A stretch of 64,000 nucleotides of DNA from IMG/VR virus record IMGVR_UViG_3300037790_000020. One strand, given 5' to 3'. Below the pieces are notes generated by a model. That model was not told where the DNA came from. It did not search any database and worked only from the letters and a program-made list of their open reading frames with translations. Positions 5,773 to 52,694 of the stretch are shown here, piece after piece. Made by a program: the position numbers and the translations under genes. How positions within the stretch are numbered: the stretch's first letter is position 1; every line of letters begins with the position of its first letter. This DNA is from an uncultured virus (IMG/VR IMGVR_UViG_3300037790_000020). Lineage: Duplodnaviria > Heunggongvirae > Uroviricota > Caudoviricetes.

Positions 5773-5779
5773 GATTATT

Positions 5780-5962: not shown

Positions 5963-5969
5963 AGAACAA

Positions 5970-6152
5970 ATGGAAATACATATAAAATGGTTAGATGATT
6001 CTAAAGTAATTCAATTAGAAGTACGTAAACAAGGGGTAAAACCTAAGCTTTACCAGCAAACTACTAAAGCTAGTAGCGAAAACGTGCGTACACTATTCGA
6101 TAAACTAATACGCAGTATAACAAAGATAATGAAAGAACATGACTATGATTAA
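5970..6152 (+). CDS. Early hypothetical protein
   Basis: ATG at 5970 (MEIHIKW...) avoids overlapping the previous gene. Confidence 0.5.
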   Translation: MEIHIKWLDDSKVIQLEVRKQGVKPKLYQQTTKASSENVRTLFDKLIRSITKIMKEHDYD

Positions 6153-6381
6153 CATACAGTTAGTAAGTAATAAAACCAATAGGAAAAGGTTTATTGGTAC
6201 TGCAAACGGTATTAATAATGCTCGTATTATGGGCAAGGCTATACTCGAAGATTTAGCTATGGTACAAGATTGCAGGGTTGAGTTATGGGATGAACACAAC
6301 ACTAAATGTTTTGAAACATTACGTAAACCATTAGGTATTTTAGAGCAAAAAGAGATAAACGATAGAAAGTATGGAGAATAA
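6139..6381 (+). CDS. Early hypothetical protein
   Basis: Tiles with its neighbours on the plus strand. Confidence 0.55.
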   Translation: MTMINIQLVSNKTNRKRFIGTANGINNARIMGKAILEDLAMVQDCRVELWDEHNTKCFETLRKPLGILEQKEINDRKYGE

Positions 6382-11872: not shown

Positions 11873-14326
11873 ATGACAACCATACCAAGAAATAAATTTG
11901 AAAGAAAACATAGTGATTTTAGATTGCAAGAACTCCGCCGTAGGAATAATCCTGACTGTGGTATTCGAACTTATACATGGGTACATGCTGATTATAATCT
12001 AGGACATATAGCCTTAGATGAAAACGGTGATATGGTCTATGTCTATGATATGGAAACTCAAAACTCCGTCTCTAGACCAGAAGTAGGTTTAGACTGTCAT
12101 AAACTAAGGTTGACAGTAGAGTACCCTTACGGAATGAAATCTTGTTTTTATAATCCGGGTACCATCGCCTCACAATTTGGTTTACATCTAGTTTACCAAG
12201 AAGACTTATCAACAATTTTAGATGAAGAATTAAAAGGTTTTATGCCTTTTTCAGCTTATCAGGAACTATTTGAAAATCATTATAATATTGGATTTAGCTT
12301 TTCTAATGGTACAAGATTGGTAGACTCAAATGAAATCAAATCTTCAATGCGGGGATACCATCTATTGGAATTTAGTACAGAGTCTCCGTGGCTTGTTTCT
12401 TCGTTTAAAAAACGTGATAGTGATGTACGGCATAGAGCTTTTTGGAATAGGTTAGAGTATAAAGTAGAAGTTTTAGCGCAGGAATATGCATCAAAACTAC
12501 AAAAACTTAAAAAATATTTAAAAACAAAAAAATTGGATAAGGAAATTGACATGATTTTTGATAAGAATGTTCACCTAAGAGAAGGCTATCGTGCTTCTAC
12601 TTATGAACCGATTAAGAATATGTTATCAGATGATTATCTGCGTATTCTCAATATTCCCCCTCACAATAAAACTGAGCTTGAGGATTATTACCCCGACCGG
12701 AAGGCTTTACGTAGTTTAAAAGTCTTATCTCCTTTCAAGGAATTTGATAATACCTTTCAAGAGTCTTTGGGGAATTTTGATTCTGGTTTAGATGAGATTG
12801 AAGGTTCTGAAAACAGAGAAATCGGAATTTGCTGGTTAACAGGACATACAGGACTTTGTAAAAAGATACGTTTTTACGGAAAGTTAGTGAAAGTCAACAA
12901 AGAATTTATTGACGCCAACAGCATACCGCTTACATGGTTATCTTGTGCAGAAAGTTATGTTTATACCTATGACCCACGTTTAGCTATCGGTAAGCTTCTT
13001 ATTACTGAACAAAATAAACACAAATTGGACTTAGAATTGTTACCGAAATCCATTGGTAACAAAGGTATTCGTTCTATTCAACACGGCTATCTTAAAGAAA
13101 AGAATTTTGAATATTGTAATGGTTCTGATGATTGGTGCGACAGCCCTATTACCTTGTTTAATGATGAACAGGGCCGGAAATATTCTTCAATTTATGCCAG
13201 TAATCATTTTGCTAAGGCCGATAAACCTGTTATAAATGAAGATGGTAGAATAGTTGACTTTAAATCTGTTTGGTATGACCATTCAGACCCTTGTATGAAT
13301 AGGGCGCAAGATATCTTTGCTGAAGACGATGAAGAACGCCTCGGAAACAATAAAGGGGGTATCTGTTCTATTCCTTTTGGTAATAGACCGGAGCTATTCT
13401 ATGGCTATATGCGTGAAAATAATAAAGGAGAGCTGGAAATTACGAAATACGCTAAACCACGAGAAAGATATTATGGCGTTGAAATTGAACTAGAGCGGAG
13501 AAATCGCAGTACTGATGCCTTCGTTATGCTTTCAAAAGTTATTCCAGAACTTAAAAAGATTGGGTTTGTCAGTGGTACTGATGGCTCATTGCGGGAAGGC
13601 GGTACAGAATTTCGTTCGTGCCCACAAACATTCTCGGTATTACAAAAGAACCTTGCTAGGTTTTACGAAGTGGTATCGCCATACTTTGTAGCAAAAGAGA
13701 CGTGTGGAGTCCATATCCATGTATCTCGCTCAAGTTTGAGCAATTACCAGATAGGAAGAATTATCGGCTTCGTCTATAATCCTAACAACGGTAAATTTAT
13801 ACGTGATATAGCAGGGCGTCCGTCAGGACAGTGGCAAGAGTTCGAGAGCGGCTCATCCTTTGAAGGGTTTAATATCCCTGACTCAAGCTCCGCTATCCCG
13901 CGTATTAAACTCAATAAAAGAAAACTTAGAAAGGGTAAAACTAAATTAGTAGAAAATCGTAAGAAAAGACTAACTGATTATGAGTTTAGAAACGATGGTA
14001 AATATACCGCCGTTAATACTGGTCTTACTAATACTATTGAGTTCAGATTATTCGCTGGTTCGAGTACGTATGATTTAACCATGAAGTATCTTGAATTTGT
14101 AGATGCGTTATGTCATTATACTGAAACAGGAAGAGTTGATGAACCTATTAGACAGCTTGTTAGAGGCTCAGTATTCAAGAAGTGGCTGATAAATAATGGG
14201 AAGAAATACCCTAATCTGTGTAAGTTCTTGAAAGTAAAGAATAATAAATCATCTGATACAGGCGGTTTTATTTTTGGTAAATGGAAAGAAAGAAAAATTA
14301 AGAAAGGTAAAATTAAATGTGCTTAA
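11873..14326 (+). CDS. Amidoligase no. 2 with about 530-aa N-terminal extension
   Basis: YYGVEIELE, TDGSLREGGTEFRSCP, TCGVHIHVS, KYTAVN, TIEFRLFAGS in the C-terminal third. Confidence 0.88.
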   Translation: MTTIPRNKFERKHSDFRLQELRRRNNPDCGIRTYTWVHADYNLGHIALDENGDMVYVYDMETQNSVSRPEVGLDCHKLRLTVEYPYGMKSCFYNPGTIASQFGLHLVYQEDLSTILDEELKGFMPFSAYQELFENHYNIGFSFSNGTRLVDSNEIKSSMRGYHLLEFSTESPWLVSSFKKRDSDVRHRAFWNRLEYKVEVLAQEYASKLQKLKKYLKTKKLDKEIDMIFDKNVHLREGYRASTYEPIKNMLSDDYLRILNIPPHNKTELEDYYPDRKALRSLKVLSPFKEFDNTFQESLGNFDSGLDEIEGSENREIGICWLTGHTGLCKKIRFYGKLVKVNKEFIDANSIPLTWLSCAESYVYTYDPRLAIGKLLITEQNKHKLDLELLPKSIGNKGIRSIQHGYLKEKNFEYCNGSDDWCDSPITLFNDEQGRKYSSIYASNHFAKADKPVINEDGRIVDFKSVWYDHSDPCMNRAQDIFAEDDEERLGNNKGGICSIPFGNRPELFYGYMRENNKGELEITKYAKPRERYYGVEIELERRNRSTDAFVMLSKVIPELKKIGFVSGTDGSLREGGTEFRSCPQTFSVLQKNLARFYEVVSPYFVAKETCGVHIHVSRSSLSNYQIGRIIGFVYNPNNGKFIRDIAGRPSGQWQEFESGSSFEGFNIPDSSSAIPRIKLNKRKLRKGKTKLVENRKKRLTDYEFRNDGKYTAVNTGLTNTIEFRLFAGSSTYDLTMKYLEFVDALCHYTETGRVDEPIRQLVRGSVFKKWLINNGKKYPNLCKFLKVKNNKSSDTGGFIFGKWKERKIKKGKIKCA

Positions 14327-39399: not shown

Positions 39400-40134
39400 A
39401 TGTTGAAAAATAATAAAATTATAGCTCCAATAGCAACTGTGTTTGCTTTAGTAATGGGTATGGTAAGTAGAATGGCTGGAGGAGCTAAACCAAAGCTCCC
39501 CCTAGGTCTAGACCAATGGATTTATGGTATTCCTTACGGAGCAATTACTTGGTTCGCTACAACTTTCGTCGAGTGGCGGGATTGGATTGAATATACAGTC
39601 ATACTACTCGCATATTTAGGCGGAGTCTTTTCCAAGCGCATGGGTCATGGGGATTGGATGAATCTTCCCTACTCAATTAAGAAATTAAAAAAACGAGAGT
39701 GGGGCGACCCTATTCTCTCTCTTTTCTTCGGGAGAGACCCACGACATTTAACTAAGAGTAATGCTACAGCTTTAGCAGATATTAAAACTTATGGAGAGAA
39801 GAAACTATATTATAGGAACCTAGCAGGTTTAGCTATGTCAGGAATCTTCCCCGCTTTAATTGCGGCTATTCCTTTAACTGTAGCGGGATTCTGGATTGGT
39901 GGATTAGCTATGATTGTAGGTGGTGCTATGAAAGTAGTATCTTATGCTGTACCTTGGAAGATTGCCCCTTCCGGTAGATTTCCTTGGTGGGTTAATCATA
40001 ACTCCCCTAACTATGAATATAAATTCTTTAGAGATGAGTTCTCTGAAGCAACACAATTCGGTGAATACTTCACTGGATTCTTCGGTGCTATTGGCATCAT
40101 TATAGCTTATATGGATATCGTAGGAGTTGTATAA
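39400..40134 (+). CDS. Multi-pass membrane protein
   Basis: Five to six hydrophobic segments. Confidence 0.75.
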   Translation: MLKNNKIIAPIATVFALVMGMVSRMAGGAKPKLPLGLDQWIYGIPYGAITWFATTFVEWRDWIEYTVILLAYLGGVFSKRMGHGDWMNLPYSIKKLKKREWGDPILSLFFGRDPRHLTKSNATALADIKTYGEKKLYYRNLAGLAMSGIFPALIAAIPLTVAGFWIGGLAMIVGGAMKVVSYAVPWKIAPSGRFPWWVNHNSPNYEYKFFRDEFSEATQFGEYFTGFFGAIGIIIAYMDIVGVV

Positions 40135-40313
40135 TGGAAAAACAACAATTACCTAAAGCATTACCTGAGCAATTACGAGCTATAGCCGATAAACTTGGGG
40201 TCAGTTTCACAACAGTATCTAAAGTGTATGAAGCTAAAACTAAGAATTGGCGTAATTGTGAAGTTAGAGGATTTAGAGTCCGAGATGCTCTTAGAAATGA
40301 ATTAACTAAATAA
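40134..40313 (+). CDS. Small helix-turn-helix DNA-binding protein (59 aa)
   Basis: Below the track cutoff; LRAIADKLGVSFTTVSKVY is a canonical HTH; AGGAG SD. Confidence 0.75.
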   Translation: MEKQQLPKALPEQLRAIADKLGVSFTTVSKVYEAKTKNWRNCEVRGFRVRDALRNELTK

Positions 40314-40511
40314 AAAGGTTAGAGAGGAACAACCATTGCCTGCTAATAAACCCCGTAAAGCTAAAAAAGGAGAAATTCTCAGCGACCAAATAGGGGAGAA
40401 TTATTTTAACTATTCTGTCCTTACATATAAAATTAATAATTTAATGAAATTAATCGCTGGCGGTTTTTTAGTTATCTGTACACTCCTAGGATTTATAATT
40501 GGAACACTATT

Positions 40512-41066
40512 ATGAGTAATAAATTGAAACCCTGTATTATTTTTGATTTAGATGATACATTATTTTATACACCCAAACTAAACTGGAAACAGCCAGAAAA
40601 GGGCTGGGAAAAAACTATTCGAGAAGCAAAGCCTATAATCCCAAATGTCTTCTTATATCATGCTGTTGATTATATGGTTAATGACCCCCCTGAAGGTTTT
40701 GAGAACGACCCTAATTGGCCTAAAGAAATATTTTTCTGTACAGCTAGACCTGAATTTTTTAGAGAGCCAACTATCCAAGCTCTATGTGAATTAACACAGG
40801 ATGTAGGTTCCTCTATCAATAAAAGATTAATCATGCGGCCATTTACAAACCACGAGGATTTATCCCACGAGGTTATTAATACACCTAAAGAAGCTAAAGC
40901 ATGGTTATTAGAGCAAGTAAAGAAAAAAGGTTATAGACCTATATTGGCTTTTGATGATTCTAGCCAAGCAGTATCCGCCTATTTAGAAGGTGGAGTAGAA
41001 GTTGTTCACCATACTATTGCTTCTGCTAAGGATATTAAGAAAGCCCTTAAAAGGTATGCCGTATAA
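40512..41066 (+). CDS. HAD-family phosphatase (T4 PNKP 3'-phosphatase-like)
   Basis: IIFDLDDTL, FCTARPE, LIMRP, K, AFDDS. Confidence 0.85.
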   Translation: MSNKLKPCIIFDLDDTLFYTPKLNWKQPEKGWEKTIREAKPIIPNVFLYHAVDYMVNDPPEGFENDPNWPKEIFFCTARPEFFREPTIQALCELTQDVGSSINKRLIMRPFTNHEDLSHEVINTPKEAKAWLLEQVKKKGYRPILAFDDSSQAVSAYLEGGVEVVHHTIASAKDIKKALKRYAV

Positions 41067-41454
41067 AGACCCTGAAAAGTTAAAAGAATATAAAAGACAG
41101 CACTACATAAAAAATAAAGATAAATATCGAGAAGCTAGTATTCGTAGTAAAAAGAATACTAAACCAAAAAAACGTGAGTTCGTTTCAAGATATAAATTAA
41201 AATGTGGTTGTAGGCTGTGTGGGTATAATGATTCAGCTACAGCATTAGAGTTTCATCATATCGACCCTAGTGAAAAAGATTCAGCCATTTCAAGATTGAT
41301 TTCTGGTAATTGGGGATTAAAAACAATTAAAAAGGAAATAAGAAAGTGTGTGGTGTTATGTGCTAATTGCCATAGAACAGTACACAAAGAAATAGAAAGA
41401 GGAGTTAAACATGACTGGTTTTTGGATACCAATAATAATAGTGACAATGCTTAG
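41056..41454 (+). CDS. HNH endonuclease
   Basis: CRLCGY...LEFHHIDP...KCVVLCANCHRTVH; ATG 41056. Confidence 0.88.
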   Translation: MPYKDPEKLKEYKRQHYIKNKDKYREASIRSKKNTKPKKREFVSRYKLKCGCRLCGYNDSATALEFHHIDPSEKDSAISRLISGNWGLKTIKKEIRKCVVLCANCHRTVHKEIERGVKHDWFLDTNNNSDNA

Positions 41455-41620
41455 TGGAAAACCTATGCTGTTGCATGATACACATAGGCTATTTGAAAGA
41501 GAAAATGATTGTTTATTATATAATGAAATTGCCTTAAGTAGACTGCCCGAGGACTTAGAAAATAAGATTGCAGGTGTGCAATACACTTGTATCTTTATTC
41601 CTGATAGTAGAGGTATTTAA
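41411..41620 (+). CDS. Small exported or membrane protein
   Basis: GAGGAG SD, hydrophobic N terminus, two Cys. Confidence 0.5.
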   Translation: MTGFWIPIIIVTMLSGKPMLLHDTHRLFERENDCLLYNEIALSRLPEDLENKIAGVQYTCIFIPDSRGI

Positions 41621-41757
41621 TGATTAAGAAATTGGAGAGTTCTTAATGATAGGGATATCTTGGGGCTGTACAGAGAGCTTGATGCCTTCCAGTATTACTT
41701 CTATTAATACAGATAATATAAAACCCAGAGCAATGATTAAAGTATTTAACCACGAAC

Positions 41758-41994
41758 CTACTTTCTTTTATCAGGATTTAAAGCATCTATTTTCGCATAA
41801 CAAGCTTTAAGGTCTGAATCATATTCAAAAATTTTATTACGGGCTTGTCTATTAGTTGTAATATTACTTACATCAGGCAGAGGCTTAGTTTCGTAAAACT
41901 CTTTATCGAATTTTCTATCGGGTGCGGTGCAACTGCTCAAAACCCCTAGCGATACAAGAAGGCACAGCGTCATTACAAGTGGGATTGTTTTCAT
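41758..41994 (-). CDS. Outer-membrane spanin (o-spanin, lipoprotein)
   Basis: Signal peptide with lipobox LSSC; overlaps the i-spanin 3' end in another frame. Confidence 0.8.
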   Translation of the reverse strand: MKTIPLVMTLCLLVSLGVLSSCTAPDRKFDKEFYETKPLPDVSNITTNRQARNKIFEYDSDLKACYAKIDALNPDKRK

Positions 41995-42214
41995 TATCTA
42001 ATTCCTCTATTAAATTATTTCGTTCCTCTGTTATTTTATCAACATTATTTTTATATTGAATTAAGGCTGTGTTACTCGCTTCTAATTGAGCTCTAAGTTT
42101 TTTTAATTCAGCATTTTCAACTAGAGTTGCTTTAGCAAACCAACCCGCAAAGAATATAAGTAAAACTCCCCCCACTCGAAAAAGCAGGGGGAGAAGTTTA
42201 ATAAAAACGGGCAT
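41915..42214 (-). CDS. Inner-membrane spanin (i-spanin)
   Basis: N-terminal TM segment, coiled coil, C-terminal cysteines. Confidence 0.8.
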   Translation of the reverse strand: MPVFIKLLPLLFRVGGVLLIFFAGWFAKATLVENAELKKLRAQLEASNTALIQYKNNVDKITEERNNLIEELDNENNPTCNDAVPSCIARGFEQLHRTR

Positions 42215-42216
42215 TA

Positions 42217-42447
42217 TTAAACTGCCTCGTTCTCAGCTTTAACTGCGGTAGCATTCTTATTCTTAAATACGTTAAGAGCTAAGAAGTTAAGTACAGTTAG
42301 AACCGGCTTGACATATTTATTTACTTTACTTTCATCTACAAAAATAGTAACAAAATTTGCAACAGCAACAACCATAGCAATAAGAGAAGCTACAATTACG
42401 CTGCCATTATCAAACAATGCTGTTAAATCAATACCAAAAAGTTCCAT
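42217..42447 (-). CDS. Holin
   Basis: 76 aa, hydrophobic segments, LNFLALNVFKNKN; between endolysin and spanins. Confidence 0.7.
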   Translation of the reverse strand: MELFGIDLTALFDNGSVIVASLIAMVVAVANFVTIFVDESKVNKYVKPVLTVLNFLALNVFKNKNATAVKAENEAV

Positions 42448-42468
42448 GATTAGTTCCTTTTCTTTTCC

Positions 42469-43101
42469 TTATTTGAGAGTCTCTATGACCTCAATAAAAT
42501 CATTCACACGTACTGGAGTTTGTCTATACCATAAACTCCTACGTAAGTTATGAATAGCGTTATTATACCGTTTATTTTTTAAATGTGCATATGTTCTACT
42601 AAATGTTTGAGTCCATCCAGTTCCTAATTGGTAATTAACTGAAGCTAATATAACGATTAATTTTCTATTACTTGGATGCCCTAATTCTTTTGCTTGTCTA
42701 TACGCAGCTTCTAAAGCCCATTTAGAATCCTCTTTAAACCATTTTTCTACCCGGCTTAACGGAACTAAATCCCCCACTTTGAGCTTATCTTCAGGTCTTA
42801 TTAAATGTCCCCAACCTGCGGTAGGCTTACCCAGAGAGTCTTTATATACTTTATGTTTACCGGTAGTCTTATCAATTACCTCACCTTCACGGAGCTTTAT
42901 ATGCTCTTTAAAATCAGCATAAACGAGTTCTTCAAGGCTTTTTTGGAGATTTTTTAGGCTTATTGGGTGGCTTTCTATTTGGGATACGGTTGTCGTTGCT
43001 GGCTGGGAAGTGGACTTGCGACTCAAAAATGTTTTGTCCATATTCGAGAATTTCCCAATAATCCATGTCCAAATGCCTTCCAATGTTTGTGAGATATTCA
43101 T
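42469..43101 (-). CDS. Endolysin (T4 lysozyme-like, GH24) with N-terminal extension
   Basis: HIKLREG...YKDSLGKPTAGWGHL (E-D-T triad), YQLG, SLWYRQTPVRV. Confidence 0.9.
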   Translation of the reverse strand: MNISQTLEGIWTWIIGKFSNMDKTFLSRKSTSQPATTTVSQIESHPISLKNLQKSLEELVYADFKEHIKLREGEVIDKTTGKHKVYKDSLGKPTAGWGHLIRPEDKLKVGDLVPLSRVEKWFKEDSKWALEAAYRQAKELGHPSNRKLIVILASVNYQLGTGWTQTFSRTYAHLKNKRYNNAIHNLRRSLWYRQTPVRVNDFIEVIETLK

Positions 43102-43124
43102 AATTTCTGTTCCCGTAAATGGAC

Positions 43125-43319
43125 CTAAATGCTAACTCTAAAGGGTGAGCAAGGTTTATAATATTCTTGTCGTCGAAGTCTGAGGGTATGTCCAAGATTA
43201 ATCATCCTTAAAGCCTTTATTAATTTTTTCACGTTTTTTATTTTTAATAACTTGTGGTTTAAACTGTCCACTATGAAAAAGGGTGTGCTTAATGGTTCGA
43301 TTACGAACTTTATGTTCAA
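43125..43319 (-). CDS. Hypothetical protein
   Basis: Fills the gap in the late operon. Confidence 0.4.
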   Translation of the reverse strand: MNIKFVIEPLSTPFFIVDSLNHKLLKIKNVKKLIKALRMINLGHTLRLRRQEYYKPCSPFRVSI

Positions 43320-43327
43320 TCGATACT

Positions 43328-43504
43328 TTATCTTTTCTTCCTCTTCGCTTTGACTTTGCCACCTTTTTTGTATCCTTTAGTTTCTTTCATTTTTTTAGCT
43401 GCTTCAGCTTCCATCTTAGCTACACGATTACCGCGTTTAATAGCCTCTCCTTCTTTAGGAGTTACTGGTTTTTTCTTTGGTTTTGGTGTTTTCTTACTTG
43501 GCAT
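43328..43504 (-). CDS. Small basic protein (58 aa) with GYKKGGKV motif
   Basis: Hand translation MPSKKTPKPKKKPVTPKEGEAIKRGNRVAKMEAEAAKKMKETKGYKKGGKVKAKRKKR; TAATG overlap. Confidence 0.7.
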   Translation of the reverse strand: MPSKKTPKPKKKPVTPKEGEAIKRGNRVAKMEAEAAKKMKETKGYKKGGKVKAKRKKR

Positions 43505-43713
43505 TATCTCTTACTCTTCTTTCCTTTACAACCCCATGCTTTCCTACGCACCTTTACTTTTTCTGTTTTCTTTTGTCCAGAACTTCGGGCACAATAAGCA
43601 TCTCCTCTTTTAGTACCCGGATGGGCGATTCTTTTATGTTTTCTCCCTTTCGAATCGGTATATGTAGTACCGTTCGCGTATTTCTTTGATGCTGGCTTCT
43701 TTTTACTCGGCAT
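43504..43713 (-). CDS. Small basic protein
   Basis: PGTKRGDAYCARS...WGC pattern seen in phage late basic proteins. Confidence 0.7.
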   Translation of the reverse strand: MPSKKKPASKKYANGTTYTDSKGRKHKRIAHPGTKRGDAYCARSSGQKKTEKVKVRRKAWGCKGKKSKR

Positions 43714-43715
43714 TA

Positions 43716-44084
43716 TTAAGCCGCATAAAATAACATATCTGTTGCTACAGTATATGCGCCCGTATTAGCATCTCTTGTAATAGTTGGAGTACGATATTTA
43801 AAAGAATCAGGGGTTGTTGCAGCTGCTTCAGCTTCTTCAATCTCACGTCCTAGAGCTATTAGAGCTTCAACTAAAACATCAAAAATATCTGTACTACCTG
43901 TATAGCTGAAATGAACGGTATTTGTATCTTCGTCAATATCAGTACCTACTTCTTCACCATCATCTAATGCAGCTGTCACAGTATATTCTGTATCTATAAC
44001 TGTGTCAACCCAAGAAGTTGACGTAAAGATTCCTGCAATTTTCTCGTTAATATAACCTATTAAATCATTTTGTGGATTAGCCAT
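43716..44084 (-). CDS. Acidic hypothetical protein, possibly virion
   Basis: TAATG overlap; 122 aa. Confidence 0.65.
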   Translation of the reverse strand: MANPQNDLIGYINEKIAGIFTSTSWVDTVIDTEYTVTAALDDGEEVGTDIDEDTNTVHFSYTGSTDIFDVLVEALIALGREIEEAEAAATTPDSFKYRTPTITRDANTGAYTVATDMLFYAA

Positions 44085-44359
44085 TATTTTTTCTTCCTTT
44101 TACTTCCCTTTTTACGGCCCGGTGCTGTTAACCCATGACCCCTATTTTTAGTTTTACTCTGTGTTTTAGTATTACCTTTTCTATTATTTCTTGGGTTATT
44201 ATCAAGATGAGCTATATCTTTACCATCCCCCTTTTTAGCCCGGCCTGACTTTATAGCTTGGGCTCTAGCCTTATTACGAGAAGCCCGGTCTTTCTTAGAC
44301 TTTGTAGAAGACTGAAATTTTTTATATTCTTTTTTATAGTTTCTAGGTTTTTTTGCCAT
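44084..44359 (-). CDS. Basic HNH-like protein
   Basis: RNYKKEY...RASRNKAR...GDGKDIAH...N...S...NR. Confidence 0.65.
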   Translation of the reverse strand: MAKKPRNYKKEYKKFQSSTKSKKDRASRNKARAQAIKSGRAKKGDGKDIAHLDNNPRNNRKGNTKTQSKTKNRGHGLTAPGRKKGSKRKKK

Positions 44360-44365
44360 GCGTCT

Positions 44366-44374
44366 ATTATATCA
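44366..44374 (-). promoter_or_regulatory. Extended -10 element TGaTATAAT 6 nt before ATG 44359
   Basis: Minus strand reads TGTGATATAAT-AGACGC-ATG. Confidence 0.6.
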
Positions 44375-44391
44375 CAATTAATTTATAATTA

Positions 44392-44631
44392 CTAACCTAT
44401 TGTTTTAGAAAGAAAATCAAAAACAGCAGAGCCGCCTACACCACCACCTATAGAACCAGATAAAATTATTAATCTATTTATCCATTTTTGGTTAATGTTC
44501 TGTTCTTCGAGTTTCCGAATACTCTCTTCTAAAAGTTTATATCGAGCATCAGACTTATCAAATTCCGCTTTATATTCTTTTAGCACTTGTAATATGTGAT
44601 ATCTAAGTTCATCCCAGCTAGGTTGCGACAT
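44392..44631 (-). CDS. Coiled-coil protein with C-terminal membrane anchor (holin/antiholin-like)
   Basis: Heptad N-terminal region then LIILSGSIGGGVGGSAVF. Confidence 0.55.
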   Translation of the reverse strand: MSQPSWDELRYHILQVLKEYKAEFDKSDARYKLLEESIRKLEEQNINQKWINRLIILSGSIGGGVGGSAVFDFLSKTIG

Positions 44632-44644
44632 ATTCTACCCCCTT

Positions 44645-45130
44645 TTAATCAGGCATAGGAAAGACAGCGATAATGATGCCTCCTACTGCTACAATATCCG
44701 GCCCGTCATAAATAGGAAACTTAGCTAAAATACAATGGTTTGCTATTTTATCTGGATTATGTCTATTTGGCACAAGTTCTACAGTATACTCAACTGTACC
44801 ACCTGCTATAACTTTATCATCGTTCTTCTTAAATAACTCTGCAACTTTTTCGCCCCAAACATCCACATCTTTTTTACCGACATATTCGTCTACTTTAACT
44901 TCATATAGAGCTTGATAGGCGGGGCTGATAAACATCATCGTCCCGTCAATAGCTTTAATCCAACATGGAAAAGGTAGATTCTCGACAAAACATACCATGA
45001 AATCTCTTGAGTTAACTCTAGCTTCCGCAATGAAATCAAGTTGACCTGATATATTTTCTAACTGCTGTAAACTATAATTTAGATTTACTCTTGAATGTGT
45101 TAAATCCGGTTTCATATTTACACTTAACAT
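44645..45130 (-). CDS. Stand-alone PAS-domain protein
   Basis: FVENLPFPCWIKAIDGTMMFISPAY...EYVGKKDVDVW..KVAELFKKNDDKVI...KFPIYDG.DIVAVGGI follows the PAS_4 pattern. Confidence 0.88.
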   Translation of the reverse strand: MLSVNMKPDLTHSRVNLNYSLQQLENISGQLDFIAEARVNSRDFMVCFVENLPFPCWIKAIDGTMMFISPAYQALYEVKVDEYVGKKDVDVWGEKVAELFKKNDDKVIAGGTVEYTVELVPNRHNPDKIANHCILAKFPIYDGPDIVAVGGIIIAVFPMPD

Positions 45131-45131
45131 A

Positions 45132-48100
45132 TTATTTACCTTTATCCTCCAATTGTCCTTCTAGTCTAGGTAATCCGTATTTCTGTGGTGCCTCGCTAAA
45201 CTTAGTTTTCTTACTGATATGTCTGCGTTGTTTTAAAGGCTTTTCTTCTGCTTCTACTCTAGCTCTCAGAGAAGTCTTAAGTGCTCTCATTAATTCTTTA
45301 CGAGTTTTAGGTTCTTCTTGGTTAGCATTATATCTATATAACTCCAGCATTGCTCTAGCGAAGTCTGCTTTAGCGCCTTCCTCCCCATTACGTTTTGCTA
45401 CAAGGGCCTTTGCTACTTTAGCATATTTCTTTGAATATCCGCTAATTGTAGCAGACTGTTCCAATCCTTGATAATAGTGAGCCCGAGAAGCTTCACTTAC
45501 TACCGCAGGTCTTAAACCCATTGCTTGTTTAAACACTTCGTCCGCTGGTCCGTCTAAACCATCTTTATATAATTCGGGATTTTCATCAGGACCTTCAATC
45601 ATTCTTTTACCACGAGTATTACGTAACTCTCCTGTACGGATATCATTAGCTTTCTTTAAATTACGAAGCCATACTGGAGCAAGAGAATCTACAAATGCGC
45701 TACCTGCCCCTTCCCCACCTTCTATTCTATTAAGCATATTCATAGCTCCTGTAGGGATAGTAGCAAGAGGACCTAAGAACTGTAATGCCTGTGATTGTGA
45801 AGTCATACCATTACTATCTGGAGAAGCAAAAACGTCCATAAAGGGCTGTAATGGAAACTGAACTGCAATACGTTGAGAAGCATCAATATCTGCTCCACCC
45901 GAAAGAATCGGACCCTTCATGATTAAGTCTTTCATTTTAGGGTCTTTAATACCAACAAATTCCATTGCATCAGCTAATACAATATCTAGATTAGTTGGGC
46001 CACGTCCATCATTCATTAAACGTTGTAGCCATTTAGTCATCCAATCCCAAGTTTCATAAGCGGGTACAGCTGTCATACCACCGAATAAAATTGGATAAGT
46101 TAATATCATATTTACAGCAGCTTTTTTACCTGCTACCCCCCTTGTGGTTAAAAGACGAATCATTTGTTCGAGAATAGAAATAGGATATTGTAAGAATGCA
46201 AATAAACCTGCTCCTGTTTTAGAACGTAAAGCTGACGGTCTTGGGTTTTTACCAAAAATAGCATGATTCTCATCGATAGCATGTTCTACAATAGCTTCTT
46301 TAGTAATTCGACCCTCATATTTAGATTTAACTAATTCCCTGAATAATGCATCAGTTGAATAAAGAAGACTACCAATCTTTTCAAATTGTTTGGGGTTTTT
46401 AACAGAATCAAGAACAAGAAGGGCTGAGTTCATACGAGCAACGTCCTCAGTTACCTGAATCATTCCCTGTCCAATATCTTTGAGTTTACCCCCCACAACA
46501 CCAACAGTACCAAATCTCCCTTTCTCACCCCGTAAAATCTGTTTCTGTTTTTCTTGATTACGAGAGTAGTTAACTGCATCAATAGCATATCCGGGGTCTA
46601 ATATACCCCTTTCATATAGTTTAAGAAGTATACGTGCGTCCCCTTGACTTATATTCACTTTCTTAGCAAACTGAGGAACAGTCCTAGAATTTAGCAAAGA
46701 TTTATTAGCTTGTATTCGAGTAGCTTTGTTCAAACTGGTTGTGAAAGATTTTAAGTTGGATTTAATAAAATCAACAGGACCTTGATATTGAGACAACCAA
46801 GGAAGAGTATTCATATAAGTAGACATTAACTGTAAAAGGGAGGTAGAAGGGTTACCCGCCAAAAAGTACCAGAAAGTAAGCTCTCGAATTTTAGCTGCAT
46901 CATCAGCAGGACTATTCATATATTCATAATAATCTGTTAACTGACTTAATGACTTTTTACCGCCTTTACCTAATTTTTGTAAATCTTGTGTAGCTTCTGC
47001 ATATAGTTTATTTAAAGGTTGACTATATTGAAATCGGGTAAGCATGGCTGAACGTGCATTAAGAGAATCCAACATAGAAGAGATAGGGTCATCTATATCA
47101 TACCCATAGTAGTTCTTTTTATCTCTATAATTCATAAAAAAGCGTTCAGTCTCAGAATCAAAACTAAGTTTATCGAAAGTTTCATTTAGTACTTTTGGGT
47201 CGATGTTTTTATTAGTAAGCAAGTTTGCTAAAGCTTCATACGCGATATTGGGGTTTTTAGCGTCTCGCATAATATTCTTACGCATATCTTCATACGTCAT
47301 TAAGAAAGGAGTAGCCCCAGATATATTCTCACCTTTTGAAGTAACAAAAGTTACATTATGTTTTTCTTGGTCTTGTTGAATCCGGGCTTGAACATCAGCA
47401 AAATCTGAAGTATCTAAATTACCAAATTTGTCTGATTTAACTGAATATAGACCGGCCAGTTCTATTTTACCATCTTCATCTTGAGTATAAGTAGCAATAG
47501 CATACGGACCTCTATTACGTGTATGAGGGAAGTAAGCTTTATTACTTCGGTACATTCTTTCCATTTTATCGAATATATCTACTAGGTTCTCAAGTTTACT
47601 GGCCCCTGTATCATCACCTAAAGCTCTCAGTTCGTCTATCTTGTCCAACATCTCGGTGCGTTGAGCCTCTTCACTTAAACCATAAGTCTTAGCAGCACGA
47701 GTTTTAAATGTCTGCATTTCAATGAGCATTTGTTGTTTAAATAGTTTTTGTAAATCTTGAATAGCCTGTGAAGTAGCTAAATCAACTACTTTTCTCACCC
47801 CATCTTTATCTTTAAAACGTACTCGGCCAGAATCATCCGTTTCAATAATCTGTTCCACGCTATTCCAAGGACCAGTCATTTGTTCAAGTACAGCAGAAGC
47901 ACCTTCTAAACGTTTAATCCCATGTTGTTCTTTTAGAAGGATGAAATCATTTAAATGCTGACGGAATAGCTGTTCTCTAAAAGCATCTTTAGCACGATAT
48001 AAATGGAAAAATGGGCCAAAGATAGGTTCGCTTCTTGCTTTAGCGCCCATAGTTTTCATAAAATCAAAAGAACGCAATACTTCTTTTAAAGTACTATTAA

Positions 48101-50198
48101 CCCCTGATTTCTTGTAGGAATCTCTATCTAAGTTAAAGTTTTCTGGTTTCCAAACTGTTTCAGGAACTTCCGCATTATCACGCATAACCTTGATGGCTTT
48201 AACTGCTTCATACTCACTGATTTCTTCGGCAGCTTTAATATTATTTTGAACTTCACGCTCAGGAGTCTGGTCAACATCTCTGTCTAAACGTTGAACGGGA
48301 ATATTGATATCTCTATTAACAAAACGAGAATATTTTCTACCTAAACGATTAATGGTTGGTGTATCAACTTTAGGATTCTCACCCTTTCTAAAATCTTCAA
48401 ATATATCACCTATGATAGCGTTACGTGTTCTAGGGTTGGACATAAACCCTTCTAATAAATCTTTAGTACCTTCTTCACTACCCGTATCATATTTTGCTTG
48501 GATAAATTTATTTAGCTCTTTATTCTTACCATTCAAAGCAGCTAATTCATCGTTAGCAAAATATCCAGAACGCTTAAGATTTTCAATTAAATCTGCCGTA
48601 GCTTTAACTTTTGTTTCATCCTTAGTTTGTTTTGATTTAATTTTCTTTAAAGCTTGGTTGGCTTGCTCAAGAGTACTACCTTTAAAATTCAACCCACCTT
48701 TATTTCTACTTAAAGAAGTGAGGGCTTTATTTAAAGCAACATTATCCTCTAATTGAGATAGCCAATTTTCAGCAGCTTCTTGTTGGTTTTTCTGTTTAAT
48801 AAGCTCAGAAAAAGATAAATTCTTATTATTAGGTTTTTGTTTTGCTACTTGTAGAAGTTTCTTTCTTGTAGGCTCATTAATCCCTTTTAATTCTTCTGGA
48901 ATAGGTTTTTGAGATAGATTCTCGATAGGTTTTTGGGATGGAGTTTGTACTTCATCTTTAGCTTGGTCGATATTGAACTTTTCCAGAATAGCATCAGTAA
49001 TCTCTTTTTTAGTAAGACCTTCGATATCCTTAGAGTCAATCCCGGCATTATCTATGGCCCTAGACTGTAAATCAGCCTTATTCAGGCTCATGAGTCTATT
49101 TGTCATCTGCTTAGGAGTACCTCTAGCAATCTCCTGAGGGAACTCTATACGCTGTGCCTGTCTAACCTTACTTTCTAGCTCAGTATCCTTAGGAGCCTGT
49201 GTAGGGGCCTCAGAATCGCTTTTAGGGGCATTTTCTGTATCAATTTCGGTTATTTCAGCTAGTATATCTTCAGGATTGGTTCCTAATGCCTCTATTTGGC
49301 CCGAGGATGCCCCCTGAGTGCCCTGTAAAACATTTTCTAGGGTAGGCTGTATAATTGCTTGTGGAGCGCCTGTAGCAGCCTCTAAACCGATTTCTAAGCC
49401 TATTGCAGCAGGGTCAGTAATTTCCCCTTCAGAAATAAGCTGTGCTGAAGCTTCTCCAGCACCCCCTAAACCAGCTTGAGCAACAGCTTCTCCAGCAAGG
49501 CCACCCTTACCTAATTGTGCCAGTTTTCCTGCAATACCATAAGATACAGCATCAAACATAGCTATAGGTACGCCCCTTTCTAAGCCTTTTTGCTTAAGTT
49601 TAGGACCAATCTCAGGGTGAGTAATAACAGCTTCAATCTCTTTTGGGTTAGTAATATCAACACCAGATTCAGCCATTGTTTGTAAAATAGTAGACCCATA
49701 TTCAGCCGCACCTGTGACACCACCAAATGTAGTAGCTCCGATAGTTCTAGCTGCGGCAGGACCACCTCTAACAACAGCCTGTCCTGCTCTACCCACAGGC
49801 AACGCAGTTAAACCTGCGGCAACAGAAGTGGGGAGAGATTCAGCTAGAAGGGAAAAAGCAGCTTTTGGGTCTTTAACTAGATTAACAAGGGTGTCTGGAA
49901 TACTTTCAGATTCCATAATTTGGTTAATACGGGTTTGAAGTTCAGGGTCTTCTAATCGGAGCTGGTTAGCTTCCTTGATATTCTCAGTTGCACCTTCATA
50001 GTCACCAGTAAGTAACTGACCAGAAGCAATAGAGGATTTCGCACCAGCTTTAGCACGATTAAGAACATCTCCAGTAGTTCCGGTTTTTTTAGATTGGTAT
50101 ATAGAGTAGAATTGATTGAACTTATCATCATCTAGGTCGTAGCCTTTTTTACCTAGATAATCTCGTAATATTAACTGCTCTTTAAGTAAATCATCCAT
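45132..50198 (-). CDS. Large internal virion / DNA ejection protein
   Basis: 1688 aa, Gly/Ala-rich hydrophobic N-terminal region, helical body; last of the tail-core genes. Confidence 0.7.
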   Translation of the reverse strand: MDDLLKEQLILRDYLGKKGYDLDDDKFNQFYSIYQSKKTGTTGDVLNRAKAGAKSSIASGQLLTGDYEGATENIKEANQLRLEDPELQTRINQIMESESIPDTLVNLVKDPKAAFSLLAESLPTSVAAGLTALPVGRAGQAVVRGGPAAARTIGATTFGGVTGAAEYGSTILQTMAESGVDITNPKEIEAVITHPEIGPKLKQKGLERGVPIAMFDAVSYGIAGKLAQLGKGGLAGEAVAQAGLGGAGEASAQLISEGEITDPAAIGLEIGLEAATGAPQAIIQPTLENVLQGTQGASSGQIEALGTNPEDILAEITEIDTENAPKSDSEAPTQAPKDTELESKVRQAQRIEFPQEIARGTPKQMTNRLMSLNKADLQSRAIDNAGIDSKDIEGLTKKEITDAILEKFNIDQAKDEVQTPSQKPIENLSQKPIPEELKGINEPTRKKLLQVAKQKPNNKNLSFSELIKQKNQQEAAENWLSQLEDNVALNKALTSLSRNKGGLNFKGSTLEQANQALKKIKSKQTKDETKVKATADLIENLKRSGYFANDELAALNGKNKELNKFIQAKYDTGSEEGTKDLLEGFMSNPRTRNAIIGDIFEDFRKGENPKVDTPTINRLGRKYSRFVNRDINIPVQRLDRDVDQTPEREVQNNIKAAEEISEYEAVKAIKVMRDNAEVPETVWKPENFNLDRDSYKKSGVNSTLKEVLRSFDFMKTMGAKARSEPIFGPFFHLYRAKDAFREQLFRQHLNDFILLKEQHGIKRLEGASAVLEQMTGPWNSVEQIIETDDSGRVRFKDKDGVRKVVDLATSQAIQDLQKLFKQQMLIEMQTFKTRAAKTYGLSEEAQRTEMLDKIDELRALGDDTGASKLENLVDIFDKMERMYRSNKAYFPHTRNRGPYAIATYTQDEDGKIELAGLYSVKSDKFGNLDTSDFADVQARIQQDQEKHNVTFVTSKGENISGATPFLMTYEDMRKNIMRDAKNPNIAYEALANLLTNKNIDPKVLNETFDKLSFDSETERFFMNYRDKKNYYGYDIDDPISSMLDSLNARSAMLTRFQYSQPLNKLYAEATQDLQKLGKGGKKSLSQLTDYYEYMNSPADDAAKIRELTFWYFLAGNPSTSLLQLMSTYMNTLPWLSQYQGPVDFIKSNLKSFTTSLNKATRIQANKSLLNSRTVPQFAKKVNISQGDARILLKLYERGILDPGYAIDAVNYSRNQEKQKQILRGEKGRFGTVGVVGGKLKDIGQGMIQVTEDVARMNSALLVLDSVKNPKQFEKIGSLLYSTDALFRELVKSKYEGRITKEAIVEHAIDENHAIFGKNPRPSALRSKTGAGLFAFLQYPISILEQMIRLLTTRGVAGKKAAVNMILTYPILFGGMTAVPAYETWDWMTKWLQRLMNDGRGPTNLDIVLADAMEFVGIKDPKMKDLIMKGPILSGGADIDASQRIAVQFPLQPFMDVFASPDSNGMTSQSQALQFLGPLATIPTGAMNMLNRIEGGEGAGSAFVDSLAPVWLRNLKKANDIRTGELRNTRGKRMIEGPDENPELYKDGLDGPADEVFKQAMGLRPAVVSEASRAHYYQGLEQSATISGYSKKYAKVAKALVAKRNGEEGAKADFARAMLELYRYNANQEEPKTRKELMRALKTSLRARVEAEEKPLKQRRHISKKTKFSEAPQKYGLPRLEGQLEDKGK

Positions 50199-50213
50199 TA
50201 AAGCTCCTCACCA

Positions 50214-52694
50214 TTATTCAGCCATCTCAGCAAGAATTTCATCAATCTTAGTAGTATCTAAGTCCGCAAAAGGGTCTAAGAAATCATCATCAGTTTTAAT
50301 TTTATGTTCCATCTTCTCTCTTTCTAAATCCAATTTATCTCGTTTAAGGTCGAGAGAAGCAGCTTGGTATGGAGTCAGCCCATTACCTTTTCTGGCATTT
50401 TGATTTACTTGTTCAATATAAGCTTGTGCTTTTATATAATCAATGTAATCTTGAAATTCTTGTCTTTTCTTATCTGCAATTGCTTTTTGTCGTTCAAGTT
50501 CTAATCTTTTAGCATCCCCAGCACTTTTTGTACCAGCGGATAAACCTGCGAGAATCTTATCTCCTGAATCACCGTCAGTACCCAGCATAGTTAAACCAGC
50601 AATTAAAAGAGGCATATTAATTCCTTTAGAACGGGGTTCTTCTGTTTTTCCGGCCTCTTTATTAATAGGAGTTATCCACGGGGGAAGGACATTTGGAACT
50701 GTACTATTACCTTTAGAAGCAACAAATTCGTTTCCTTGTCTAACTGGTCTGTTGTAACTAACTCCTGAATTTGCTTTAAACACTTTACCGGAATCATCCA
50801 TCTGTAATTGATTTGCATTTAAAGCGGGGATTTTACTTTCATCAAAATCTTTTAAGTCAGCAACAGTTAGAGGTTTATTTTTGAGACTATTCTCTTGGGT
50901 AGAACCCCTATTAAATAGATTTGCAATTTCTTCATTTAAATTATCGTCTACTGAAATTTCTTCATACTGAGCTTTAGCATTTTTTGCTAACTGCTGTTGC
51001 TTAGCTTCTTTCTTAGCTTGAACTTCCTGTTCGGGAGTAACAAGAAAATCTTTTACATGAGGATAAGCGGCGCGGACACCTTTTTCAAGTCCTTCAACAG
51101 GGGCAAGAAGCTCATTTAAAATAGAAGCCGGGATATTCTTCAAAGCATTACCTGTAGAATTAACCATATTCACAGCTTTAGAATTAGCGGGAGAAGTATC
51201 TTGTGTTAAATTATAAAGCTCTAAAGAATCCAATTTATCTCTGAAACCTTCAACGGGTCCGCCATCAGCAAAACCAAATGCACTTAAAAAACTACCGCCA
51301 GAACTATCTAAACCAAAAAAGCCATCTGAATTAGGGGAAAGAGTTGGGCCAATAGGGGCACTATAGTTAGAGGAATCTACACCATCTAAACCACCTTTAA
51401 ATAAACGGGAGAGCATATTACCATCTGAATCATCAAGGCCAAATTCTTCTATTAAAGCTTCGAGTCCTAGAGAATCAATTTCTGGGGGTACACCAGAAGC
51501 AGGAACAGATGAAGAAATACCGGGGAAACTTGCTCTACCAGCAGGGGCTACCGGAGCTAGTCTAGCTTGGCTCGCAAGATTAGAAGATACAGGGCCCCCT
51601 TCTCTCATCTCAACAGCTTCATCATACTTTACAGTTTTTACACCATTAACTTCACCGACTGCATCTGGTTTAACTTGTTCTACATCTTGCGCTATAAGGC
51701 CGATTTGTGGGGTTGAATCACCTTTATAATTATATGAATATACAGGTAATCCATTATCTAATTCACCTACTTGTTTAATATTCTCTTTTACTCGTTCATC
51801 AGAGAACAGTCCTGCAATAGAGGCTACAGAAGATGCAATGCCAGCAACATTACCTAAAGTACTAGAACCGCCACCACCTTGTTGGTCTTGTGTAGTTGTA
51901 CCACCTGCATACGCACCAGTTAAAGGATTCATAATATTAGCCAAGAAATTTATATTTTCATAAGGATAGGCTTGTTCTCTATCAAATTCTTGGAAATCAA
52001 AATCTAGTTCATCTTGTCTTCTTAATCTTTGCAGTTCACCTTGCTTTAACAACTGAGTAATATCAGCTAAGTTATAGGCTTGCCCACCTTCTACAGTCTG
52101 CAAACCTTGAGAAATGCCAGAACTTAGAACATCAGAACCTCGGTTAAACTGGTTTTGAGCATTATCGAATGCATCAAAACGCCCACGATAATCTAAATCT
52201 TGTAATTGTTCTTGTAATAATTCATCTGCTTCAGCTTGTCTAAGTGCAATCCTAGAACCGCCAAAAGCATTAATCATACCTGCTTCTTGGTCCCGCAGCC
52301 GTTGTTGGTCATTATAATTATCAATTGTATTGCGTTTAGAAATATCTAGAACATTCTCTAGATAAGGATTCATATACTGTTGAATTTGGGCTGAAGTAGG
52401 ACCGTTAGCTCTACTAATTAAATCGTAAACACTACTAGAAGTAGTATTCAGTAAGTCATTATACTTACCAGTAGTACTGCGCGTTAAATCAAACGCTGTA
52501 TTAGCGTCAGTAGTGAAATCAGCGATACGTTGCTGAGTATAGGGAGTAAAGGATTGCTTAGAAAGAGTTTCAGCGCGTTTAACTAAATTTTTATTTCTTG
52601 AATCAAGCCAGCTAGGGACCTGAACTGTTTGGGTAGAGACAGCTCCGCCGCCATCATCTCCACCACCTAATAAACCTTTAGCTAAACCACCCAT
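50214..52694 (-). CDS. Ejection protein with internal peptidase S74-type autocleaving chaperone domain
   Basis: YMNPY, AFGGSR typical of podovirus DNA-transfer proteins; FSDERVKENI...YSYNYKG...GLIAQDVE...PDAV...VKY. Confidence 0.8.
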   Translation of the reverse strand: MGGLAKGLLGGGDDGGGAVSTQTVQVPSWLDSRNKNLVKRAETLSKQSFTPYTQQRIADFTTDANTAFDLTRSTTGKYNDLLNTTSSSVYDLISRANGPTSAQIQQYMNPYLENVLDISKRNTIDNYNDQQRLRDQEAGMINAFGGSRIALRQAEADELLQEQLQDLDYRGRFDAFDNAQNQFNRGSDVLSSGISQGLQTVEGGQAYNLADITQLLKQGELQRLRRQDELDFDFQEFDREQAYPYENINFLANIMNPLTGAYAGGTTTQDQQGGGGSSTLGNVAGIASSVASIAGLFSDERVKENIKQVGELDNGLPVYSYNYKGDSTPQIGLIAQDVEQVKPDAVGEVNGVKTVKYDEAVEMREGGPVSSNLASQARLAPVAPAGRASFPGISSSVPASGVPPEIDSLGLEALIEEFGLDDSDGNMLSRLFKGGLDGVDSSNYSAPIGPTLSPNSDGFFGLDSSGGSFLSAFGFADGGPVEGFRDKLDSLELYNLTQDTSPANSKAVNMVNSTGNALKNIPASILNELLAPVEGLEKGVRAAYPHVKDFLVTPEQEVQAKKEAKQQQLAKNAKAQYEEISVDDNLNEEIANLFNRGSTQENSLKNKPLTVADLKDFDESKIPALNANQLQMDDSGKVFKANSGVSYNRPVRQGNEFVASKGNSTVPNVLPPWITPINKEAGKTEEPRSKGINMPLLIAGLTMLGTDGDSGDKILAGLSAGTKSAGDAKRLELERQKAIADKKRQEFQDYIDYIKAQAYIEQVNQNARKGNGLTPYQAASLDLKRDKLDLEREKMEHKIKTDDDFLDPFADLDTTKIDEILAEMAE

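Follow-up and report, generated by a model that had tools for sequence, protein, structure and literature searches.

The DNA considered here, referred to as the window, is the whole 64,000-nucleotide (nt) stretch of IMG/VR virus record IMGVR_UViG_3300037790_000020, a phage genome segment with a G+C content of ~36%. Its plus strand carries replication genes, and its minus strand carries a late string of capsid and tail genes that runs down to spanin-like genes at 41758. Within this string, a 1688-amino-acid (aa) open reading frame (ORF) is followed by a 161-aa ORF, a 79-aa ORF, five small ORFs, a lysozyme gene, a 76-aa ORF with two transmembrane (TM) segments, and an Rz-like ORF overlapping an Rz1-like ORF (Table 1). 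The 161-aa product is a stand-alone PAS protein. Its gene and the 79-aa gene probably constitute one module, in which a separate anchor would keep the PAS domain on the cytoplasmic side of the membrane, an arrangement equivalent to that of phage proteins in which anchor and sensor are fused. The features computed here are the fold of the PAS protein, its conserved pairing with a small neighbor, the complementary fused and split forms of the family, their predicted topology, and an enriched adjacency to lysis genes.

Table 1. Minus-strand genes and gene candidates from the last large virion-type gene to the end of the late string of the window
Feature	Coordinates	Strand	Evidence or remarks
1688-aa large virion-type protein, PLxRFG-like	45132..50198	-	ORF; phrog_11358 match (function unassigned)
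161-aa soluble PAS protein: helix 11-50 and one PAS_4 domain (~49-157)	44645..45130	-	Pfam, AlphaFold2, Foldseek
79-aa partner: charged, helix-prone N-terminal two thirds and Gly-rich hydrophobic C-terminal segment (~54-75); proposed inner-membrane tail-anchor	44392..44631	-	
Five small ORFs separating the module from the lysozyme gene	43198..44359	-	Four very K/R-rich (91, 69, 58, 54 aa), one acidic (122 aa)
Endolysin candidate, phage lysozyme	42469..43101	-	Pfam Phage_lysozyme 8.7e-7, 29.8 bits vs cut-off 22.3; PHROG lysozyme and endolysin families
76-aa two-TM holin-like ORF	42217..42447	-	Weak matches only; Holin_SPP1 E 0.033, below cut-off
Rz-like spanin candidate	41915..42214	-	phrog_1152 Rz-like spanin 1e-4
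Rz1-like lipoprotein spanin candidate, overlapping the Rz-like ORF	41758..41994	-	Lipobox by eye; end of minus-strand late string

The ATG of the 161-aa ORF lies 1 nt past the TAA of the 1688-aa gene, and the 79-aa ORF begins 13 nt after the 161-aa ORF, behind a GGGGG run resembling a Shine-Dalgarno sequence. A first-pass annotation, made from the sequence alone, had given the coordinates, the ORFs, the 1-nt spacing, and the position of the 79-aa gene correctly. It had further described the 161-aa protein as one PAS domain with a helical leader and no kinase or DNA-binding output, and both descriptions held. Pfam places PAS_4 (PF08448) at residues 49–142 (E 1.1e-8; 35.7 bits against a gathering cut-off of 23.1). 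An AlphaFold2 model built from an alignment of 50 family sequences has a predicted local distance difference test score of 92.7; in it, a helix at residues 11–50 precedes a five-stranded PAS fold at 56–157, with strands at 56–60, 64–68, 114–120, 131–142, and 145–157 and helices within 70–110. The chain ends after this fold, and no kinase, helix-turn-helix (HTH), or other output domain was found with Pfam. The HisKA and HATPase core is likewise absent, from the 161-aa protein as from the fused homologs of 170–250 aa described below.

Foldseek returned 427 PDB matches to the model at E≤1e-3, with PAS or LOV domains at the top among the matches listed. The best were the NifL FAD-PAS domain (4e-7), short LOV proteins (~1e-6), the BvgS PAS domain, and DosP, at identities of 11–20%. 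Short PAS/LOV proteins such as PpSB1-LOV and the NifL FAD-PAS domain thus share with the 161-aa protein a PAS core, flanking helices, and the lack of an enzymatic output; they are not membrane-tethered, as the 161-aa protein is proposed to be. No PHROGs family matched the PAS protein at E≤0.01, and NCBIfam had no match for either the 161-aa or the 79-aa protein. Two weak PADLOC matches, to PD-T4-7 (0.0099) and, on a homolog, to LeoA (5e-4), were taken as chance. Databases already name such proteins 'PAS domain-containing', and gene product g078 of Cellulophaga phage phi14:2, a family member, is annotated as a 'PAS fold protein'. In a full-text collection with few subscription journals, no description was found of a fused or split membrane-tethered module of this kind or of its place in lysis cassettes.

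The relatives of the 161-aa protein form a family with two forms. A word-based search gave three close homologs (99, 68, and 64% identity), and 4867 proteins matched at E≤1e-3 in a HMMER profile search covering 1.84 billion representatives. Among the best 150 of these 4867 were short proteins of 135–250 aa and long multi-PAS proteins; 49 of the short proteins were retrieved for family analysis. They share the motif P-x-P-x-W-x-K...M...N-x-x-Y...D...W...D...K-F-P...G-G, which the 161-aa protein fits (with K-[FWY]-P allowed) through P53, P55, W57, K59, M65, Y72, D88, D104, K137-F-P, and G151, S69 replacing the N. Its family-conserved residues are W57, K59, Y72, D88, F100, D104, K137, and G151. 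In the soluble form (135–170 aa), only a helical leader precedes the PAS domain; in the fused form (170–250 aa), an N-terminal TM segment and a long helix of ~65 residues precede it. About half of the short proteins carry such an N-terminal TM segment. On a tree of the PAS core, with threshold-based and therefore noisy TM labels, the soluble and fused labels change 14 times, compared with ~28 in shuffles, none of 500 shuffles being that low. The window lies within a well-supported clade of eight soluble forms.

The family was further surveyed with a degenerate DNA pattern of the motif, the loci with family genes being given L-numbers. The pattern matched 42 IMG/VR stretches, 41 of them with in-frame ORFs, namely 40 short family ORFs and a 1329-aa protein at L047. 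After removal of redundancy, 36 motif-matched IMG/VR loci remained, L047 included, and the 35 without L047 were used for neighbor counts. Excluded from these counts were L046, which has no complete ORF with the motif, and L047 on account of its 1329-aa protein; L002 was dropped because its match (46% identity over 30 residues, E 8e-4) belongs to no family ORF. A locus scan with alignment A5 found no loci. Applied to a genome collection of far greater size, this pattern gave 41 matches, of which ~8 were family ORFs, mostly in Bacteroidota, and the rest mainly out-of-frame chance matches; by our own estimate, ~35 chance matches were expected there. Among cultured phages, the family occurs in 11 of 50,697 records, corresponding to ten phages of three host genera: Cellulophaga phi14:2, Chryseobacterium MA9V-1 and MA9V-2, and seven Brevundimonas jumbo phages, among them Kikimora (L005).

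One fused-form carrier is probably a prophage. In L014, an 81-kb metagenome contig, the phage of L008 adjoins ordinary bacterial genes (an ABC-transporter ATPase and others, identified by eye). Given these bacterial genes and an integrase after the module in L008, the phage is probably a prophage of a Bacteroidota host.

The pairing of the two genes is conserved in nearly all lineages with a soluble PAS protein. In 11 of 12 soluble PAS lineages, the PAS gene is followed on its own strand by a gene for a protein of 69–140 aa whose only hydrophobic segment is C-terminal and rich in small residues, at a spacing of -17 to +18 nt. The paired lineages are those of the window and L006, L007, L012, L029, L035, L038, L040, L043, L048, L049, and Kikimora. 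The unpaired exception is L033, in which the next gene encodes an S-adenosylmethionine (AdoMet) decarboxylase. The pairing was also scored on called genes with a fixed rule that required a protein of 55–145 aa, encoded on the strand of the PAS gene and no more than two genes away, with hydrophobicity confined to its final ~30 residues. By this rule, a partner stood at +1 in seven of nine soluble loci, and an eighth, at L038, was masked by an opposite-strand ORF and recovered by ORF listing. The rule placed a partner near only 2 of 33 TM-fused loci, both apparently spurious.

The partners themselves are very divergent. Several have an N-Q-[KR] motif ahead of the tail, and the tails have GGGxGG-type runs. 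Five close homologs of the 79-aa protein lie on the same contigs as the PAS homologs, with gene order kept in L006 and L013. A profile search with the partner alignment found 12 proteins, none functionally named. The ESM Atlas look-alikes of the 79-aa protein, comprising unnamed viral clusters and one DUF7201 cluster, were uninformative. The suggestion of the first-pass annotation that the 79-aa neighbor is a functional partner of the PAS protein is supported by the comparison of predicted proteins, because 11 of 12 soluble lineages have such a pair and in the other form the anchor is fused.

The geometry of the fused form indicates what the split pair might look like. In a model of the 205-aa protein of L001 (mean score 88.3 on the same scale), the TM helix is continuous to residue 93 and runs straight into the PAS domain. 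Of 38 fused members, 32 have more lysine and arginine in the 15-residue stretch that follows the TM segment than ahead of it (means 3.16 and 0.55). Under the positive-inside rule, this excess predicts an N-out, C-in orientation, with a short N-terminus outside and the helix and the PAS domain in the cytoplasm. A cytoplasmic PAS domain fits both the soluble forms, in which a Kyte-Doolittle scan found no N-terminal hydrophobic segment, and a tail-anchored partner. The split pair would mirror the fused layout if the leader helix of the PAS protein packs on the helical part of its partner.

The profile hidden Markov model search and synteny survey recommended in the first-pass annotation were run, and by the sequences recovered the family is found mostly in phages, in fused and split forms with a conserved partner gene, and with lysis genes at some loci only. 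In the neighbor survey (35 non-redundant IMG/VR loci, 152 neighbors within three genes, scanned with Pfam), a peptidoglycan hydrolase stood within three genes in 8 of 35 loci. It was at +1 in L028 (GH19), L030 (M15_4), L037 (lysozyme), and L054 (M15_3), at -1 in L031 (M15_3) and L050 (Amidase_2), at +2 in L039 (GH108), and at +3 in L058 (Amidase_3). Hydrolases accounted for 6 of 55 neighbors at ±1 compared with 2 of 97 at ±2 or 3 (Fisher p 0.027), and the ±1 enrichment has a binomial p of 0.0025 against an assumed background of 2.5%.

Individual loci show how close this association can be. In phi14:2, g078, a TM-helix-PAS gene, and g077, the annotated endolysin gene, overlap at the start of the latter. 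Among split forms, the order PAS gene, partner gene, and endolysin gene occurs in L007 (GH108, with overlapping codons) and L012 (M15_3), and in L038 the pair is followed by GTA_holin_3TM (3.8e-19). The partner gene adjoins the endolysin gene in L007 and L012, not in the window. Prophage-like loci follow suit: a Phage_lysozyme protein (9e-39) is at +1 in Maribacter and an Amidase_2 protein at +1 in a Cyclobacteriaceae metagenome-assembled genome, and in Altibacter a two-TM protein, a PG_binding_1 protein, and a lipoprotein occupy +1, +2, and +3.

Some further membrane proteins beside fused-form genes deserve mention in their own right. In L030, a 93-aa three-TM protein (5387–5668, minus strand) matches ETR1_N, the Pfam family for the membrane domain at the N-terminus of ethylene receptors (3e-9; 37.4 bits, cut-off 27), and sits in the holin position before the TM-helix-PAS gene and the M15_4 endolysin gene. 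By this Pfam match, the PAS domain is not the only sensor-type domain to occur in a phage lysis cassette. In L058, a 208-aa six-TM protein (5662–6288, plus strand) with a weak, sub-threshold match to 7TMR-DISM_7TM (1.6e-4) is encoded downstream of the TM-helix-PAS gene, between a two-TM protein and the Amidase_3 endolysin. In L008 (2988–3485, plus strand; also L023 and L014) and L050 (726–1226, minus strand), the gene directly after the TM-helix-PAS gene encodes a protein that combines a lipoprotein signal with a C-terminal TM segment, as do unimolecular spanins. In L050, Amidase_2 stands on the other side of the PAS gene.

The PAS domain itself may hold a ligand. In a search of PDB sequences with the family profile, the closest solved relatives were the BvgS PAS domain (2e-6) and Vibrio cholerae VqmA (6e-6), so that the comparison with VqmA drawn in the first-pass annotation proved apt at the sequence level. 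The alignment pairs VqmA K23, Y36, F67, D71, and K101 with K59, Y72, F100, D104, and K137 of the family (five of six positions identical), and VqmA F99 with L135 of the 161-aa protein. In a preprint on VqmA, residues mutated in the site for DPO (3,5-dimethylpyrazin-2-ol) include K23, Y36, F67, D71, F99, and K101; the main DPO contacts are given there as F67, F99, and K101, and the substitutions F67A and K101R abolish binding (bioRxiv 10.1101/2019.12.19.881847). Across the family, K59 and D104 are invariant, Y72 and K137 are conserved in at least 90%, and F100 is the consensus residue. Together, the alignment on the DPO site and this conservation suggest a candidate conserved small-molecule pocket in the family PAS domain, with no pointer to the identity of the ligand.

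The VqmA of vibriophage VP882 is described as a phage PAS sensor that decides on lysis (PMC8284805). The window protein differs from it in several respects. The PAS domain of VqmA is fused to an HTH domain, and the window protein has no DNA-binding domain. Its proposed output is instead a membrane tether, supplied by the 79-aa protein or, in other family members, by a fused TM helix. Furthermore, its gene lies among late structural and lysis genes and not in a lysogeny switch.

From these elements, a mechanism can be sketched. The long N-terminal helix of the PAS protein would pair with the helical part of the 79-aa protein, whose hydrophobic tail would sit in the inner membrane and place the PAS domain at its cytoplasmic face. 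Judging from the conserved pocket residues, the pocket may bind a small intracellular molecule or read the redox state. As the gene neighborhoods hint, the signal might then pass through the helices to the membrane segment and modulate holin triggering in an antiholin- or co-holin-like manner, tuning lysis time late in infection. That the module is a ligand- or redox-sensing, membrane-tethered regulator of holin triggering and lysis timing can be put forward as the best, though tentative, reading, well worth entertaining even if we would not bet on it. Its broader version is more doubtful; the family would be an undescribed, widespread phage lysis clock, in which a cytoplasmic PAS domain binding a metabolite, redox carrier, or signal is coupled via a helix and a Gly-rich membrane segment to holin triggering.

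Small lysis regulators are well known in phages, including the RI and RIII antiholins of T4 and S107 of lambda. XhlA of Bacillus PBSX is a small protein with a C-terminal TM segment that is required together with the holin XhlB. All of these are small accessory proteins that act on the holin at the membrane and have their genes within or close to lysis cassettes, and the module is likened to them in proposed role only. The 79-aa partner has an XhlA-like layout, with a helical part followed by a C-terminal hydrophobic segment; however, none of these proteins has detectable homology to the module. To our knowledge, no T4 RI or RIII, lambda S107, or XhlA protein has a PAS or other ligand-sensing domain.

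A number of observations weigh against a tethered module and against its link to lysis. The first-pass annotation had called the 79-aa protein a membrane-anchored, holin-like coiled-coil protein. A crude heptad test did not bear out the coiled coil, being non-significant for both the PAS leader helix (shuffle p 0.41) and the 79-aa protein (shuffle p 0.15). The C-terminus of the 79-aa protein is indeed hydrophobic and Gly-rich, but as a TM segment it is only marginally hydrophobic (Kyte-Doolittle 1.36 over the 19 residues 54–72). The holin likeness was not sustained either. No Pfam holin family was listed for the 79-aa protein at E≤1, and its match to the 'holin' family phrog_689 (E 0.0039) is below threshold; XhlA (PF10779) scores 12.2 bits against a cut-off of 34.7, in this protein and in two of four other close homologs. 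All holin and XhlA matches of the partners and of the fused TM segments fall below thresholds. The pocket residues, for their part, may be kept for a structure common to PAS_4 domains.

The genomic context adds to these objections. The binomial p for hydrolases at ±1 is only 0.056 if a background of 5% is assumed, and 26 of 35 IMG/VR loci have neither a Pfam-recognized hydrolase nor a holin within three genes. In the window, the module was said to lie just upstream of the lysis genes; the lysozyme gene is downstream, but ~1.3 kb and five ORFs separate the two, so there is no direct adjacency. Other settings are remote from lysis genes: L024 comes after a capsid gene of crAss type, L040 is flanked by terminase and portal genes, and L033 lies beside genes for SegE and AdoMet decarboxylase. 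In Kikimora (L005:3977–6094) and the related viral contig L048 (3151–5243), the PAS–partner pair stands two genes upstream of a PhoH-like gene and not near lysis genes. In addition, separate multi-TM holin candidates are encoded beside the module in the window, L030, L038, L054, L058, and L078. The lysis link proposed earlier is thus upheld in part, in that several unrelated phages and prophages have endolysin or holin genes immediately beside the module, and falls short at the 26 loci without them.

Among other explanations, the one closest to the alternative raised in the first-pass annotation is that the family members are headless mimics of membrane sensor kinases: their TM anchor, zipper-like helix, and PAS domain would imitate the kinase input half, and mixed dimers with a host PAS kinase would silence or misdirect its signaling late in infection. 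We consider such a decoy unlikely, though it accounts for several facts. The architecture lacks any output domain, and many loci lie away from lysis genes. The strongest non-phage matches, among the best 150 of the 4867, are long proteins (549–2462 aa) with 2–10 PAS stretches, presumed to be sensor kinases from their size and repeats. The input architecture of ArcB comprises a TM anchor, a leucine zipper, and a PAS domain, and the fused members likewise combine a TM helix with a long helix and a PAS domain. These members weakly and partially match ArcB residues ~118–252 (E 8e-7 and 6e-4) and DosP. Nevertheless, the ArcB score of 27.6 bits is far under the model cut-off of 838, and the family differs from ArcB in lacking the HisKA/HATPase core and receiver. 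Usual sensor kinases are two-TM, N-in proteins, unlike the single TM segment and N-out topology predicted here. The family motif is moreover kept across phages of Bacteroidota, Alphaproteobacteria, and unknown hosts, where one would expect a decoy to follow individual host kinases, and in several phages start and stop codons overlap with those of endolysin or holin genes. Nothing points to alphaproteobacterial cell-cycle kinases, which had been named as possible targets.

Similarly improbable, in our estimation, is a membrane-tethered late protein unrelated to lysis, acting in superinfection exclusion, at an assembly or packaging site, or as a PhoH-type stress link, whose adjacency to lysis genes would reflect insertion at module borders. 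The variety of settings speaks for it, since members occur after a capsid gene, among tail genes, in the terminase–portal gap, and near PhoH in two related lineages; so do the many loci without a recognized lysis gene nearby and the position of the window module directly after the last large virion gene. Conversely, the hydrolases are concentrated at ±1 rather than at ±2 or 3, and the order of PAS gene, partner gene (in split forms), and endolysin or holin gene is repeated in unrelated phages with overlapping codons. Many of the Pfam-less neighbors are small TM proteins or lipoproteins and could be unrecognized lysis genes.

The module might also be a pore former itself, a single-TM holin or co-holin whose Gly-rich TM segment oligomerizes into a lesion gated by the cytoplasmic PAS domain, which we regard as very unlikely. 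GG occurs in 13 of 38 fused TM segments and GG or GxxxG in 18 of 38, in keeping with the glycine runs of the partner tails. The partner in L012 is the only membrane protein adjoining the endolysin, and weak holin matches were obtained, to phrog_689 as above, Phage_holin_2_3 (0.0015), and Phage_holin_5_2 (0.015). However, every one of these matches is below threshold, the hydrophobic segment of the 79-aa partner is marginal, and the separate multi-TM candidates listed above would already supply a holin at six loci, including the window. Lastly, long cellular multi-PAS proteins have PAS_4 repeats similar to this domain, but the idea that the gene is a sporadic, non-functional piece of a host PAS gene is effectively excluded by the conservation and the partner: the 161-aa ORF is intact with its own ribosome-binding site, homologs at 64–68% identity retain the same neighbors, the family has its own conserved motif and partner, and motif matches are in-frame in 41 of 42 cases in viral contigs compared with ~8 of 41 in the far larger genome collection.

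Returning to the proposed regulator of holin triggering, its interest lies in lysis timing being a determinant of phage fitness. Antiholins are known to respond to superinfection or membrane potential; we know of none that responds to a bound small molecule. If the lysis-clock reading is true, the timing of lysis in environmental phages that infect several bacterial phyla would depend on sensing of host chemistry, without a transcription factor or kinase. A PAS sensor wired into the lysis apparatus would then amount to post-translational host sensing, unlike the transcriptional switch of the VqmA type. The family is rare in cultured phages and recurrent in environmental viral contigs, which points to an unstudied trait of uncultured phages. 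Three cultured systems, namely Cellulophaga phi14:2, Chryseobacterium MA9V-1/MA9V-2, and the Brevundimonas jumbo phages, are open to direct tests, and the occurrence of split and fused forms offers a clean, testable protein-pair prediction.

By large terminase, the closest cultured relative of the window is Pelagibacter phage HTVC023P, at 33% identity only, and a megablast search of window positions 40000–52000 against cultured phages gave no match. G001, the nearest virus record, is fragmentary (40.9 kb) and lacks the module region. The stretch is present in pond-metagenome DNA sequencing runs, and no RNA run was among the runs listed as containing it. A promoter and terminator scan found nothing that sets the module apart from its neighboring genes.

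Upstream of the module, the first-pass annotation had labeled the 1688-aa gene an ejection gene. The protein matches no Pfam family, its PHROG family carries no function, and its score against the NCBIfam PLxRFG/'tail-700' model (3e-27; 95.4 bits) is just below the cut-off of 100. The label is unproven because the PLxRFG match is near-threshold and the ejection and S74 matches sit on the neighboring 826-aa protein. This protein, encoded further upstream (50214–52694, minus strand), has an intramolecular-chaperone domain (Peptidase_S74), and its PHROG matches are to 'DNA ejection protein' and tail-fiber families. In the related contig L006, a 1691-aa ORF occupies the place equivalent to the 1688-aa gene. 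The set of five small ORFs downstream of the module is also present in L006, its 91-aa member belonging to phrog_4590, and these ORFs might encode packaged DNA-binding or ejected proteins. In the early region, two large proteins of 504 aa (9012–10526, plus strand) and 817 aa (11873–14326, plus strand) both match the PHROG 'amidoligase enzyme' families phrog_2443 and phrog_16683.

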